A stretch of 8,747 nt of DNA, from IMG/VR virus record IMGVR_UViG_2778261151_000014; one strand, 5' to 3'. How positions within the stretch are numbered: the stretch's first letter is position 1; each line of letters starts with the position of its first letter. The notes under the pieces were generated by a model. That model worked only from the letters and a program-made list of their open reading frames with translations, searched no databases and was not told the DNA's origin. Shown piece after piece: positions 1-8,574 of the stretch. Origin of the DNA: a virus. Lineage: Duplodnaviria; Heunggongvirae; Uroviricota; Caudoviricetes. A program made the translations under genes and the position numbers.

Positions 1-148
1 CATTGAGCGACATAATCTGAATCTGAGACAACATCTGGCAAGGCTGGGACGGAAGTCACTGTCGTTCTCAAAATCGGTGGAGCTGCATGACAAGGTCATC
101 GGGCATTATCTGAACATAAAACACTATCAGTAAGTTGGAGTCATTACC
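1..148 (+). mobile_element. IS1-family insertion sequence, right-hand end (partial; element continues beyond window start)
   Basis: Frame-2 translation of 2..133 ends ...[43 protein letters not shown], which matches the C-terminus of IS1 InsB as I recall it. Terminal sequence 126..148 (revcomp GGTAATGACTCCAACTTACTGAT) is an IS1-type inverted repeat and matches 8671..8693 at 20/23 positions. Several differences from the canonical IS1 I remember suggest an iso-IS1 variant. Confidence 0.8.
2..133 (+). CDS. insB: IS1 transposase InsB, C-terminal fragment (5' end outside window)
   Basis: Open frame from window edge to TAA at 131..133; translation ends ...[32 protein letters not shown]. Not in the ORF track because it is truncated by the window edge. 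Confidence 0.75.
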
Positions 149-181: not shown

Positions 182-2179
182 TTAAATGGTTTTTTTACGT
201 CTGTTCTGTTCCAGAATATCCAGCGAACGATTCAGATATTCATCACGTTCAGTTTCGTATTCATCATCACGCTCCTGATTCTTCACCCGTTCCGTGTTAC
301 CCACAGGCCGGAAAATACCAACAACCCGTGATTCTGGTGCTTCAGGTTCGGCTATCTGCGGCAGCAGCTCTGCCACTTCCAGTGCATCCATTTGTTTCTG
401 TGCCTTAATCGCTGCTTTCGTCGCAGATTTCAGTTGTTTCTGGCGGCGGCGATATTCACGGCCTGCCGCAGCATCATTAAACGCAACAGGTGCCAGACAT
501 TCCGCTTCACAGATAAACCGACCGTCCAGGGTGTAGCAATAAACCGTGCTGTGTAACTGTTGTGGATCAAATCTGACCACAACTTTTTTCACTCCGGCAT
601 TCATTAACGCCATGTTGTAATAAACGTTTTTCGCGCCTTTAAGGGAGCCGCCAACTTTAAGCGCAAACTCGCCTTTACGTGAAACGTTCACCGCCTCGGC
701 AGGCAGTAACAGCATCCGTTTTTGCTCTTCGGTAGGCTTACGCACAATCGTTCTGGCGTATTCATGCTCAAAAACGTCATCAAACGAAAGTTTGCCTCCG
801 CACATTTCTGTTTCACGGCCTGTTCTGGCATTGAACATCGCCACACCTTCGGCAAGGGTTTTCAGAAACAGCTCTGCATCAACAGCACGGTCGCCATAGT
901 TATCAGGTTTTGCCTGCGGATTTGGCCCCGTATATGCGCCAGCCAGTGCCGGATGCTTATCAACGTATTCCTCAAGCCCACCAACACCGAAAGCACGTTC
1001 AACAGGTTTTGCCTGGCCCCAGCCTTTACCGGCAACAACGCTTGTCCAGTGCATTTTCGCACCCATCAGTAAAAACAACCCCTTTGGATCGTCCTCTTTT
1101 ACCTTAAAGCGGTAGCGATTGGGCGCGCCTCCCGTCAGCCATTTATTCGCAGCACCACGGGTGTTATCAATGGTGATGTGAAAATCCTCCGGGATACCGT
1201 AGCGAGTCACAACATCCATGAACGAGAGGCGAATTGAATCAATGTTCTCGCTCACATCGCAGCGCCAGCCCAGAATTTTTCGGGTTTTCACATCCTGCCA
1301 GAACCATGTTTTCGGGCGGATCACATCACCGTTAAACCAGCGTACAAAGACGTTATGCAGATAACCGTCGCCGTTGATCCACTGCATGGCGTCCAGGTGT
1401 TCCACAGTTCGCTGCTGTGCCGGTATCAGATGCATCAGTGCATGTTCACCTTCACGACAGGCAACAACCATTGCCTCGTCCAGTTGCTGAATCCGGCGAA
1501 ATGCCGTGGCACGGGAGGGAATACTCCAGCCATGCTCGCGGGCTGCCAGTTCCAGACGCTCATAACATTTGCGGAAGGCGGGTTTTTCCGGTCGCAGATA
1601 ATCTGCAATCAGAAACTGCCAGGCATCCTCGTCAAATTCACTTTTGTGAACATTGCGACGAGATGCACCACGTCCATCAACAAGTGCAGCCGCCCAGTCA
1701 GGCTTCGCAAACTTCTGTACCTGGTAATACTTGTCCCGCAAAGTGGATGCGCTGACCTGATAATGTCCTGCAACGGTCGCAAAAGCCGTTTTTGTTGAAA
1801 TCCCCTGGTTCAGCATTTCGTCTGCAGCCTGAACCGCAGGCAACCATTTTTCAGCAAGTCTGCGCTGGGAATCGCTGGCGTTATCCCATTTGCTCCACAG
1901 TGCCTCACGATCGTAATCGTGCGCTTCCAGCGTGGGGCGGGCGATTTCAAAATACCCCTGGCTTGTTTCTATTTGCTCAGATTTTAATAACAACTCAGCA
2001 CGTGCTGCCGCTGGTAGAACTGATATATGAAATTCCAAAGCCTTTGAACCCGTACGCTTGCGACGTAGTTCTGGATGATTGGCTGCAAGCTTTTCAAGAT
2101 TGCGGCGAATACTCACCTCATGTTTAGGAAAGCATGACATTCCTACGCATTCTTGCGCTGTTACCCAATGGGTTAACAT
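182..2179 (-). CDS. A: Mu-family DDE transposase A (D108-type N-terminal domain)
   Basis: Track ORF 182..2209 starts at TTG. The in-frame ATG at 2177..2179 gives [11 protein letters not shown]..., which aligns with the Mu A start MELWVSPKEC and lies just after the ner stop (sequence ATGTTAA). From about residue 70 onward the protein is near-identical to Mu A as I recall it (..[37 protein letters not shown]..). Catalytic DDE contexts are intact ([23 protein letters not shown]) and the C-terminus is ...EQNRRKKTI. The first ~65 residues differ from Mu. Confidence 0.93.
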
Positions 2180-2400
2180 GATGTTTTCTCCATATACCGA
2201 GAAGGCCAAATCTGGGCTGGTTCCATATCCAAATATCTAGCAATGATTGCTTCGTATCGTGGTATATGGCAGCGAAATACGTTACGCATAGTGTCAGGCT
2301 TTAAGCCTGCCTCTCTGGATAATTGAGATAGTGTCTTCCCCTTCATACGAACAGCAGCCTTTATCTGCTCTGCGTGCCAGTCTTGGTTTTTTGCTGACAT
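2173..2400 (-). CDS. ner: Ner-family DNA-binding regulator of early transcription (Ner/Nlp family)
   Basis: 75-aa ORF with ATG at 2398..2400 and RBS AAGGA upstream. Shares motifs with Mu Ner ([18 protein letters not shown]) at roughly half identity. Sits immediately upstream of A on the same strand. Confidence 0.88.
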
Positions 2401-2569
2401 TCTGCGATCCTTACTCTCTTAACGTTTTCGGTAACTGATACCAGCTACCGCTATCGGGAAAAACGATAGCGCAGAAAAATGCGCATTTCAAGAGCTATGC
2501 GCATTTTTATTTTAACCAATGCAAATCAAAGAATTCTGTAAAATTCTTTATATAACAGAGAGATTGAGC
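2401..2569. promoter_or_regulatory. Divergent early/repressor control region (operators, candidate Pe and Pc promoters)
   Basis: Intergenic region between divergent ner (-) and c (+). Contains perfect palindrome AAATGCGCATTT (2477..2488), further copies of GCGCATTT(TTAT) at 2497..2510 and 2603..2614, inverted repeat CGCTATCG-N7-CGATAGCG (2449..2471) and inverted repeat AAAGAATT-N6-AATTCTTT (2528..2549). Candidate Pe on minus strand: -35 TTGAAA (plus 2486..2491), 17-bp spacer, -10 TATCGT (plus 2463..2468). Promoter assignments are inference. Confidence 0.55.
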
Positions 2570-3178
2570 ATGACAGGTGAAAAAGAAAGCAAAAATACAG
2601 AGCGCATTTTTATGCCCTCGGAAATAATGCGTTTCAAGGAACGCCTTGAAGAGGCAATGAATGGAGAATCAAGCCGGGCGTTTGCAGCTAAGTGCGGACT
2701 TTCTGATGGGGTTATCAGAAACTACCTGTCTGGCAAGACATACCCGTCTTTAGATCGATTAGCACAAATAGCCTACGCAACAGGGCGTCCAATAGAGTGG
2801 TTTATCCAAAGTCAGAGCATGCCAATGGTTGAGCATAAAAATACTCAAGAGAATAAAAATCCTCAACCTGACCGCAGCACATTGAAAACTAAACTGATCG
2901 CAATTGTCGAATTGTTAGAGGACAAGGAACTGCATTCTGCGATTGAGTTGTTCAGAAAGAAAGGATTTGAAGCTCTTATGCCTGAGATTTTTTCTTCCGA
3001 TGATTCCATCCAGGCTGATTTGCAAGGTATTTCGCAGCAAACCTTACAAACAGCCAAAATGCTTGAATCATTACCAACAGATACTCGTAAAGAGATTTTG
3101 TCAAAGTATGGTATTTATGAACAGGAAGGTCTTGTAGCTCCTTCACAAGAACCACAAGATGTAAAAAAAGCCGTATAA
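2570..3178 (+). CDS. c: Mu-family immunity repressor c (heteroimmune, non-Mu DNA-binding region)
   Basis: Track ORF starts at ATG 2519, but ATG 2570 (MTGEKESKNTERIFMPSEIM) aligns with the Mu c start (MKSNFIEKNNTEKSIWCSPQEIM as recalled) and has a weak GAGAG upstream. C-terminal ~100 aa resemble Mu c (..KEILSKYGIYEQEGLVAPSQEPQDVKKAV). Central region (..SSRAFAAKCGLSDGVIRNYLSGKTYPSLDRLAQIAYATGRPIEWF..) looks like an HTH and differs from Mu c. Start is uncertain; ATG 2612 is another candidate. Confidence 0.85.
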   Translation: MTGEKESKNTERIFMPSEIMRFKERLEEAMNGESSRAFAAKCGLSDGVIRNYLSGKTYPSLDRLAQIAYATGRPIEWFIQSQSMPMVEHKNTQENKNPQPDRSTLKTKLIAIVELLEDKELHSAIELFRKKGFEALMPEIFSSDDSIQADLQGISQQTLQTAKMLESLPTDTRKEILSKYGIYEQEGLVAPSQEPQDVKKAV

Positions 3179-3344
3179 CAACCATGAACCAGCTAAAACA
3201 TACTTCACCTCACATAATCACACATGTAACATACCTAAACGGCATGAGCTGATTTGTGATATGAGTCATTTGGTTACAGCCTGGTTGTTATCGGTTTTGA
3301 ACGTTTTTTGAAGCTGTTATTGAAATGATTTGCAGTGTTTTTGT

Positions 3345-3750
<406 letters not shown>

Positions 3751-3975: not shown

Positions 3976-4701
3976 TTATTTGTCGCTATCTTTCCCCGCC
4001 AGCAGTTTATCCAGCTCATCGCCACCGACGTGACGGAAATCCTGCCCCTTCACGTAGTAGAAGATAAACTCACAAATATTCTGGCAGCGGTCGCCAATAC
4101 GTTCGATAGAACGCGCGCAGAACAGCGCAGTAAGTACGCTCGGAATGGTACGCGAATCTTCCATCATGTAGGTCATCAGTTGACGAACAATACCTTCGTA
4201 TTCCTGATCGACTTTTTTATCTTCACGATAAATACGTACCGCTTCGTCAATGTCCATCCGCGCGAACGCGTCCAGCACGTCGTGCAGCATCTGGATGGTA
4301 TGACGGCCCAGCGACTCCAGACTTACCAGCAACGGCTGATGCTGCTGGGAGAATTTCTCCAGCGCAGTACGGCAGATTTTGTCCGCCACGTCGCCAATAC
4401 GCTCCAGCTCGGCAATGGTTTTACTGATCACCATAACCAGTCGCAGGTCGCTCGCCGTCGGCTGACGTTTGGCGATAATGCGCACGCAGGCTTCATCGAT
4501 CGCCACTTCCATCATGTTGACGTTCTTGTCGCCTTCGATCACGCGCTTCGCCAGATCGCTGTCCTGGTTATGCATCGCGGTGATTGCATCAGAAAGCTGC
4601 TGCTCCACCATGCCGCCCATGGTCATCACCTGCGTGCGGATACTTTCCAGTTCGGCGTTGAACTGGCCGGAAATATGTTTATTAAGATTGAGACTGTCCA
4701 T
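3976..4701 (-). CDS. phoU: PhoU, phosphate signalling/regulatory protein
   Basis: Translation from ATG 4699..4701 is [25 protein letters not shown]... (241 aa), matching E. coli PhoU. AGGAG RBS upstream. Track ORF began 6 codons earlier at a TTG. Confidence 0.97.
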
Positions 4702-4715
4702 AACGCACTCCTGAA

Positions 4716-5575
<860 letters not shown>

Positions 5576-5579
5576 AGTG

Positions 5580-7432
<1,853 letters not shown>

Positions 7433-7444
7433 TTACTCTTCAGT

Positions 7445-7506
7445 TAAACGCGTTTACAAAGTCATTTTGTAATGCCGGATGCGGCGTAAAACACCGTACC
7501 CGGCCT
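7445..7506. repeat. pstS-pstC intergenic palindromes and REP-like element
   Basis: 12-bp palindrome TAAACGCGTTTA (7445..7456), hairpin TTACAAA-N5-TTTGTAA (7454..7472), and REP-like GCCGGATGCGGCGTAAAACACCGTACCCGGCC (7474..7505). Probably a transcript-stabilising or attenuating structure after pstS. Confidence 0.5.
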
Positions 7507-7515
7507 GGAGTTTTA

Positions 7516-8574
<1,059 letters not shown>

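Follow-up and report, generated by a model that had tools for sequence, protein, structure and literature searches.

In textbook Mu lysogeny, the repressor and the transposase share a DNA-binding domain, and both bind an operator that doubles as the transpositional enhancer; the mosaic relationship between Mu and D108 is likewise classical. We asked which immunity type is carried by the Mu-like prophage in IMG/VR virus record IMGVR_UViG_2778261151_000014, and whether its repressor c and its transposase A have such a domain in common. The whole stretch of 8,747 nucleotides (hereafter the window) was analyzed, which holds the left end of the prophage with c on one strand and the genes ner and A on the other. 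A sequence-only reading of this DNA had proposed a D108-like heteroimmune module on a Mu backbone, in which the N-terminal domains of c and A co-vary and carry related recognition helices. We identified a mosaic cassette that corresponds to none of the Mu and D108 types and encodes a repressor in which the DNA-binding domain is unrelated to that of the transposase, and we put at about 80% the probability that this is an immunity and early-control cassette of a third type, heteroimmune to Mu and D108, which would act by the mechanism proposed below.

Limits and occurrence of the cassette

Using blastn, window positions 3059-3517, at the attL side, were found to be 94.6% identical to Mu 1-458 and 80% identical to D108, and positions 150-1972, encoding the body of the transposase, were 97.1% identical to Mu 1529-3351 and 97.8% identical to D108. 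For the 1086 bp between them (1973-3058), blastn found nothing similar in Mu, D108, SfMu, or Mu_3F6, whereas the flanks matched at 94.6-97.8%. The heteroimmune mosaic on a Mu backbone, the Mu-like transposase body, and the Mu-like attL, all recognized earlier from the letters alone, were thus borne out. The module had been given limits of 2173-3178, and these have to be moved, with the cassette reaching 200 bp into A and ending 120 bp before the c stop codon. A mosaic with limits at 1973 and 3058 is real, and it corresponds to neither Mu nor D108.

The junction on the A side, between window positions 1972 and 1973, is equivalent to Mu 1529, D108 1476, and SfMu 1467 (blastn). It falls at Mu A codon 68, in the linker between domains I-alpha and I-beta and after the last helix of I-alpha, and at this one common position Mu, D108, SfMu, and the window type all pass from divergent DNA to DNA that is ~97% identical. 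On the c side, Mu DNA resumes at 3059, and only the last ~39 codons of c consist of Mu DNA.

The cassette was present at 98.9-99.4% identity in Escherichia coli SE11 and N1286, within complete ner-A-B-kil-gam prophages that occupy different chromosomal sites; the copy in the window lies instead in bglG and has IS1 ahead of gene B. The cassette genes of SE11 and N1286 are annotated merely as "helix-turn-helix domain-containing protein." Out of 5426 complete E. coli genomes, the Mu cassette was identified in 27, the D108 cassette in 45, and the window cassette in 2 (SE11 and N1286). A Mu-type A body was found in 83 of these genomes, and comparison with the 27, 45, and 2 typed ones leaves up to ~9 genomes with possibly further immunity types. 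Decayed copies of the window cassette were observed in Shigella flexneri SFBU1023 and in a genome deposited as E. coli ECMA0423 (L015 and L016). There, ~1.26 kb of inserted DNA interrupts ner (at window position ~2311), and A both carries a stop codon (ETS*GY) and is cut at 1803; the chromosomal site of this prophage differs from that of the window prophage. In another related prophage (L012), a ~530-bp insert (4094-4622) separates ner and A, and its 153-aa open reading frame (ORF; 4142-4603, opposite strand) had no Pfam match.

The chimeric repressor and the transposase N-terminus

The c protein is a chimera, in which an XRE-type five-helix helix-turn-helix (HTH) domain is followed by a central domain resembling that of Mu c and by a tail derived from Mu. 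Its DNA-binding region, which the sequence-only reading had placed centrally, is N-terminal, at residues 16-79 of 202. Residues 35-78 matched Pfam HTH_3 with 30.6-31 bits (cut-off, 23), and c had no match to the N-terminal half of PF02316, the Mu DNA-binding family. The AlphaFold2 (AF2) model of c, for which 13 family members served as input, had five helices over residues 16-79 at a predicted local distance difference test score (pLDDT) of 85-90. Foldseek comparison of this domain with the PDB returned only XRE/Cro-C1 structures (C.AhdI, P22 c2, 434, lambda, SinR, DdrO, and ImmR), with template modeling (TM) scores of ~0.8 and root-mean-square deviations of 1.3-1.5 A over 61-66 columns; neither MuA nor the Mu repressor was among these matches. 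The nearest annotated relatives of the XRE domain were the CI-like repressors of D3112-like transposable phages of Pseudomonas, at 46% identity (E 2e-18).

The C-terminal half of c (98 aa) was 53% identical to Mu c and 36% identical to D108 c. Similarity to the D108 and SfMu repressors (36-38% identity) was confined to this half, and no match to Mu c or D108 c was found for the N-terminal half. The earlier description of the C-terminal half as Mu-like holds for the half as a whole and for the last ~39 codons, which are Mu DNA, but only loosely for the central ~60 residues, which were just 38% identical to Mu c and 39% identical to D108 c. The motif L..KL..I.ELL...E...AIELFR.KGFEALMP was common to XRE-type and Mu-type c in the family alignment, and the AF2 model has helices over residues 102-141 with a pLDDT of ~75; the central domain is presumed to serve oligomerization. 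The tail matched the tails of the Mu-type c variants P0016, P0018, and P0020. Further, the C-terminal half gave a weak match to profile positions 76-133 of PF02316, probably because Mu c sequences belong to that family. Homology between this half and parts of A beyond I-alpha was considered and rejected, as BLASTP gave only E 0.33 over 12 residues.

Among its relatives, XRE-type c always occupied the left end of gene orders of the form c / ner-A-B-kil-gam, and in most of these proteins the Mu-like central domain is followed by a short tail that has KKxG at its end. The Pfam scan of c found no match to S24 (LexA/CI-type autocleavage). In 2 Mu-like contigs from IMG/VR (L028, 3462-4205; L032, 3453-4217), the XRE domain and leader are fused to a LexA-like S24 peptidase (GDSMEP), which stands in place of the Mu-c-like half. 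The leader peptide, K-N-x-E-R-I-F, is conserved across the family (window 2591-2613; alignment A2, columns 196-222). Its codons double as the candidate operator unit S3, described below, and change along with the operator core in relatives; conservation of the peptide may thus be due in part to its DNA being operator.

Ner was 42% identical to Mu Ner and likewise 42% identical to D108 Ner, which agrees with the earlier impression that it does not match Mu. The start codon of A (ATG at 2179) lies one base past the ner stop codon. Overall, A was 92% identical to both Mu A and D108 A, with the exception of domain I-alpha (residues 1-69), where identity was 31% with Mu, 33% with D108, and 37% with Spike, a D3112-like phage; the divergence anticipated for the first ~65 residues was confirmed, extending over ~67-69. 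I-alpha nevertheless keeps the winged-helix fold of Mu. Residues 4-78 matched PDB 1TNS (MuA I-alpha) by sequence with E 4e-7, and PF02316 scored 26 bits on residues 1-75 alone. The AF2 model of I-alpha (pLDDT 84.6) has the order strand-helix-helix-wing-helix, and its two significant Foldseek matches in the PDB were 1TNS and 1QPM, the latter being the DNA-binding domain of the Mu repressor. A protein search with residues 1-75 returned fragments only.

The DNA-binding domain of c is not homologous to A I-alpha. BLASTP of c residues 1-103 against A residues 1-90 gave no alignment at E <= 100, whereas the corresponding control pairs aligned with 41% identity in Mu (E 4e-18) and 55% in D108 (E 4e-21). 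Structure prediction, which had been suggested as a test for a fold shared by the 2 proteins, gave 2 different folds, the XRE five-helix domain in c and the winged helix in A. The sequence-only reading had also pointed to a weak motif shared by c and A. Both peptides are indeed present in the sequence, but because BLASTP finds no alignment between c and A where the Mu and D108 controls align, the motif is a chance resemblance between helices of 2 different folds; the I-R-(R)-N resemblance was absent from relatives. As for the proposed co-variation of the c and A N-termini, I-alpha has been replaced in one block with c, ner, and the operators, but the idea of related recognition helices fails, the folds being different and no similarity being detectable between the N-terminal domains. 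A joint origin of the c DNA-binding domain and I-alpha from a D3112-like lineage found no support either, the I-alpha of Spike being closer to that of Mu (45%) than to that of the window (37%).

Candidate operators and proposed mechanism

The start codons of c and ner are 169 bp apart, as in Mu. The candidate early promoter of ner-A, Pe, was the sole sigma-70-like site found in 2300-2750; it points at ner, and a promoter was identified at its aligned position in 8 of 8 related loci. We found the exact sequence AAAAATGCGC only 3 times in the 8.7-kb window, at 2475 (+), 2499 (-), and 2602 (-), and these copies form the candidate operator units S1, S2, and S3 (Table 1). Within a somewhat longer sequence, AAAAATGCGCAT (2475-2486) and ATGCGCATTTTT (2497-2508) make up a perfect 12-nt inverted repeat around the -35 hexamer, and GCGCATTTTTAT occurs again 103 bp on, within c codons 11-14; the position of S3 inside the 5' end of c is similar to that of O1 in Mu. 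Of the 11 copies of AATGCG in the window, 5 lie inside 154 bp (Poisson P ~8e-7).

The same arrangement was identified with another core in the related prophage L011, which has 3 exact copies of AAAAATTCGC, at 4891 (+), 4915 (-), and 5018 (-), in the strands and with the 24/103-bp spacing of the AAAAATGCGC units in the window. The +24/+103 geometry was also present in further loci. The contig L028 retains two AAAAATGCGC units at a distance of 24 bp. The base at the variable core position tracks c residue 47, which comes second in the recognition helix. Helix SDGV/SEGV was found with core TGCGC in 7 loci (the window, SE11, N1286, L007, L027, L012, and L028), SDTV with TTCGC in 3 (L009, L011, and L013), and SEAV with TACGC in 1 (L014), with the AAAAATTCGC units of L011 going together with G47T in the recognition helix. 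The core of a degenerate fourth unit co-varies across loci as well, as TGCG, TTCG, or TACG (alignment A2). This is good comparative evidence for the prediction that the XRE domain of c reads AAAAATGCGC-type units.

The palindrome at 2429-2450 was kept as a 9-4-9 palindrome, with 7-9 of 9 pairs intact and both arms changed, in 8 of 8 loci, and Yersinia-type relatives have a different palindrome in its place; by its position, we infer that it is the Ner operator. Two more palindromes with perfect 8-bp arms were observed in the control region, 1 at 2449-2471 (CGCTATCG-N7-CGATAGCG), overlapping the -10 hexamer and the start of Pe and intact in SE11, and 1 at 2528-2549 (AAAGAATT-N6-AATTCTTT), which in SE11 has a mismatch in each arm. 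Neither was found in more distant relatives, and neither was taken to be a functional site.

Table 1. Features of the window, with positions counted from its first letter
Feature	Position	Strand	Remarks
Cassette, heteroimmune on the preferred reading	1973-3058	.	c codons 1-163, control region, ner, and A codons 1-69; replaces Mu 459-1528
c	2570-3178	+	202 aa, three-part chimera; ORF, with the start assigned by the Prokaryotic Genome Annotation Pipeline (PGAP) identical in SE11 and N1286
c, XRE/Cro-C1-type DNA-binding domain	2615-2806	+	residues 16-79
c, recognition helix	2705-2731	+	DGVIRNYLS, residues 46-54
c, central helical domain	2870-2992	+	residues ~101-141; homology to the leucine-rich domain in the middle of Mu c
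c, C-terminal tail	3059-3178	+	residues 164-202, ending ...PSQEPQDVKKAV; Mu-backbone DNA
ner	2173-2400	-	75 aa, third Ner type; Pfam HTH_35, E 1.9e-25
A (transposase)	182-2179	-	665 aa; Pfam HTH_Tnp_Mu_1, HTH_Tnp_Mu_2, DDE_2, Mu-transpos_C
A, domain I-alpha	1973-2179	-	residues 1-69; winged helix, divergent subtype
Candidate early promoter Pe of ner-A	2463-2491	-	TTGAAA-17-TATCGT; consensus scan
Candidate operator unit S1	2475-2484	+	AAAAATGCGC; inside the 17-bp Pe spacer
Candidate operator unit S2	2499-2508	-	AAAAATGCGC; 24 bp from S1, just upstream of the Pe -35 hexamer
Candidate operator unit S3	2602-2611	-	AAAAATGCGC; 103 bp from S2, c codons 11-14 (ERIF)
Degenerate fourth unit	2623-2632	+	AATAATGCGT; flank GCGTTTCAAG repeats GCATTTCAAG of S1
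Palindrome in the Pe spacer	2469-2484		GCGCA-N6-TGCGC; S1 plus GCGCA at 2469-2473
22-bp palindrome	2429-2450	.	CGGTAACTG-ATAC-CAGCTACCG; a short way past the Pe start; putative Ner operator
Mu left end (attL side)	3059-3517	-	Mu nucleotide 1 = window 3517
bglG, 5' part	3518-3690	-	first ~57 codons; Pfam CAT_RBD
Chimeric ORF, bglG plus Mu end sequence	3421-3714		97 aa
pstSCAB-phoU	3976-8556	-	E. coli-type
IS1 right end	1-148		InsB C-terminus and terminal inverted repeat; Pfam DDE_Tnp_IS1, E 4e-21

We propose that c binds the oriented AAAAATGCGC units, of which S1 and S2 flank the -35 hexamer and take up the Pe spacer, with S3 103 bp off inside the 5' end of c. The Mu-like central domain would link c into oligomers that occupy S1, S2, and S3 and probably bridge them, and this occupancy would shut off transcription of ner-A(-B). 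Ner would bind the 22-bp palindrome downstream of Pe. A transpositional enhancer inside the cassette would be the target of the A domain I-alpha, which in Mu is known to bind the enhancer (PMC3362531). Placement of the enhancer within the cassette is suggested because Mu, D108, SfMu, and the window type share one A-side junction, and it would account for I-alpha and the operators always being exchanged as a unit; a common junction in the I-alpha/I-beta linker fits selection keeping I-alpha with its control region.

Several points weigh against this reading. The operator, Ner-site, and enhancer assignments were made in silico only, and the covariation between helix residue 47 and the core base comes from few related lineages, is partly confounded by shared descent, and is not proof. 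The consensus scan of 2300-2750 found no promoter for c on the + strand. A candidate IHF site at 2524-2536, with one mismatch, was rejected, since such matches were no more frequent in the window than expected by chance. The operator core of L028 is that of the window, but its I-alpha helix is quite different, so that I-alpha may not read the c units. Finally, this copy of the prophage may be defective because IS1 is inserted just ahead of gene B, between the ribosome-binding site and the start codon (window 150 corresponds to Mu 3351, and gene B starts at Mu 3358). The c, ner, and A ORFs are all intact in the window. The prophage, whose left end interrupts bglG, extends leftwards from 3517, and because the edge of the window lies inside IS1, its part beyond the IS1 at 1-148 is outside the window.

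Competing readings and implications

One alternative accepts c as the repressor and attributes the co-transfer of I-alpha to mere linkage to ner, recombination at the conserved flanks taking the domain along, with an enhancer that is absent, elsewhere, or not specific to this I-alpha. The single I-alpha/I-beta linker junction at which Mu, D108, SfMu, and the window type all switch speaks against this, and the Mu transpositional enhancer reportedly lies at the operator and overlaps it, going by the title of Mizuuchi and Mizuuchi 1989 (cited in PMC3362531). We therefore regard mere linkage as unlikely, while acknowledging that L028 pairs the operator core of the window with another I-alpha helix, that the control-region alignment and repeat scans showed no further repeated motif that could be assigned to I-alpha, and that I-alpha of Mu is dispensable under some assay conditions (PMC3362531).

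Equally doubtful is the possibility that c and I-alpha, an XRE domain and a winged helix without common origin, have converged on competing for AAAAATGCGC-type units of the operator/enhancer that coincide or overlap. Convergent base contacts could then account for the likeness (I-R-(R)-N) between their recognition helices. If this were true, homology between c and A, as in Mu and D108, would be a derived special case, and the lack of it the more ancient state in transposable phages.

It is quite improbable that the XRE protein is no immunity repressor at all, whether an unrelated regulator or antitoxin-like gene that has come to lie where c belongs or part of a decaying cassette without working immunity. 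HigA antitoxins do occur among the weak PDB sequence matches of c, IS1 adjoins A in the window copy, and the S. flexneri copies are visibly decayed. However, the XRE domain stands in one ORF with a central domain and tail homologous to Mu c, the protein takes the place and direction of c in all of the related Mu-like prophages, and its recognition helix varies in step with the repeats on the early promoter. In addition, c, ner, and A have remained intact in the window, and D3112-like phages have the 46%-identical XRE domain in an annotated CI-like repressor.

We give next to no credence to a D108-type module, in which c and A would have homologous N-termini and related recognition helices by common descent and bind the same operator/enhancer sites: the mosaic pattern and A-side junction are those of D108 versus Mu and both of the quoted peptides lie within the recognition helices of their own domains, but c and A do not align where the Mu and D108 pairs do, their folds differ, c and Ner are only 36% and 42% identical to their D108 counterparts, the DNA has no match to D108, and the I-R-(R)-N resemblance is lost across the family.

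The third immunity type that we favor remains close to Mu in organization. It shares with the Mu immunity region the gene order and orientation, a Ner of the same Pfam family, an I-alpha of the same fold, homologous c central domain and tail, and flanking DNA that is 95-97% identical. As in Mu and D108 types generally, c and ner-A-B diverge by attL across a control region of ~170-190 bp (169 bp in the window). In contrast, the DNA-binding domain of Mu c is a winged helix homologous to A I-alpha, whereas that of the window c is of XRE type and unrelated to I-alpha; the Mu operator sites differ from the candidate AAAAATGCGC units, and Ner and I-alpha have diverged to the 42% and 31% identity given above. 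D108 and SfMu share with the window the mosaic logic relative to Mu and the A-side junction. They have no DNA similarity to it in the cassette, however, and their c-side junction differs, the last 39 codons of the window c being Mu DNA; the c and A N-termini of D108 are 55% identical to each other, and those of the window are unrelated.

XRE/CI-like repressors are known in D3112-like transposable phages (PMC4378225). In phage Spike (D3112-like, Casadabanvirus), the 46%-identical XRE domain shares LS[DE]..[IL]R.YLSG.T.P.LDRL in the recognition helix region, the repressor lies at the left end and diverges from the early operon as c does in the window, and repressor and transposase N-terminus are non-homologous, also as in the window. 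The C-terminal domain of the D3112-type repressor is a LexA-like S24 peptidase (GDSMEP), whereas the window c resembles Mu c there, in central domain and tail alike; elsewhere, the D3112-like phages have no DNA-level relationship to the window prophage (Casadabanvirus versus Muvirus). With repressors of the lambda, 434, and P22 type, c shares the five-helix HTH and, as predicted in silico, repeated or palindromic units over the lytic promoter. A literature search, to which subscription journals were mostly out of reach, found no description of an XRE-type Mu immunity cassette. What appears to be new is an XRE-fronted, Mu-c-backed repressor in an otherwise Mu phage, which defines a third immunity group and in which the homology of repressor and transposase is broken in a nearly isogenic background.

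The cassette thus offers a natural near-isogenic system for asking whether a shared domain is needed for competition between repressor and transposase, and it may help to show how I-alpha locates its enhancer. The relation between c residue 47 and a core base of G, T, or A provides a directly testable specificity rule. More broadly, repressor modules appear to be shuffled among transposable phages, with an XRE domain or a winged helix in front and a Mu-c-type half or an S24 peptidase at the back, and the window type would constitute a third immunity group among the Mu-type prophages of E. coli and Shigella.

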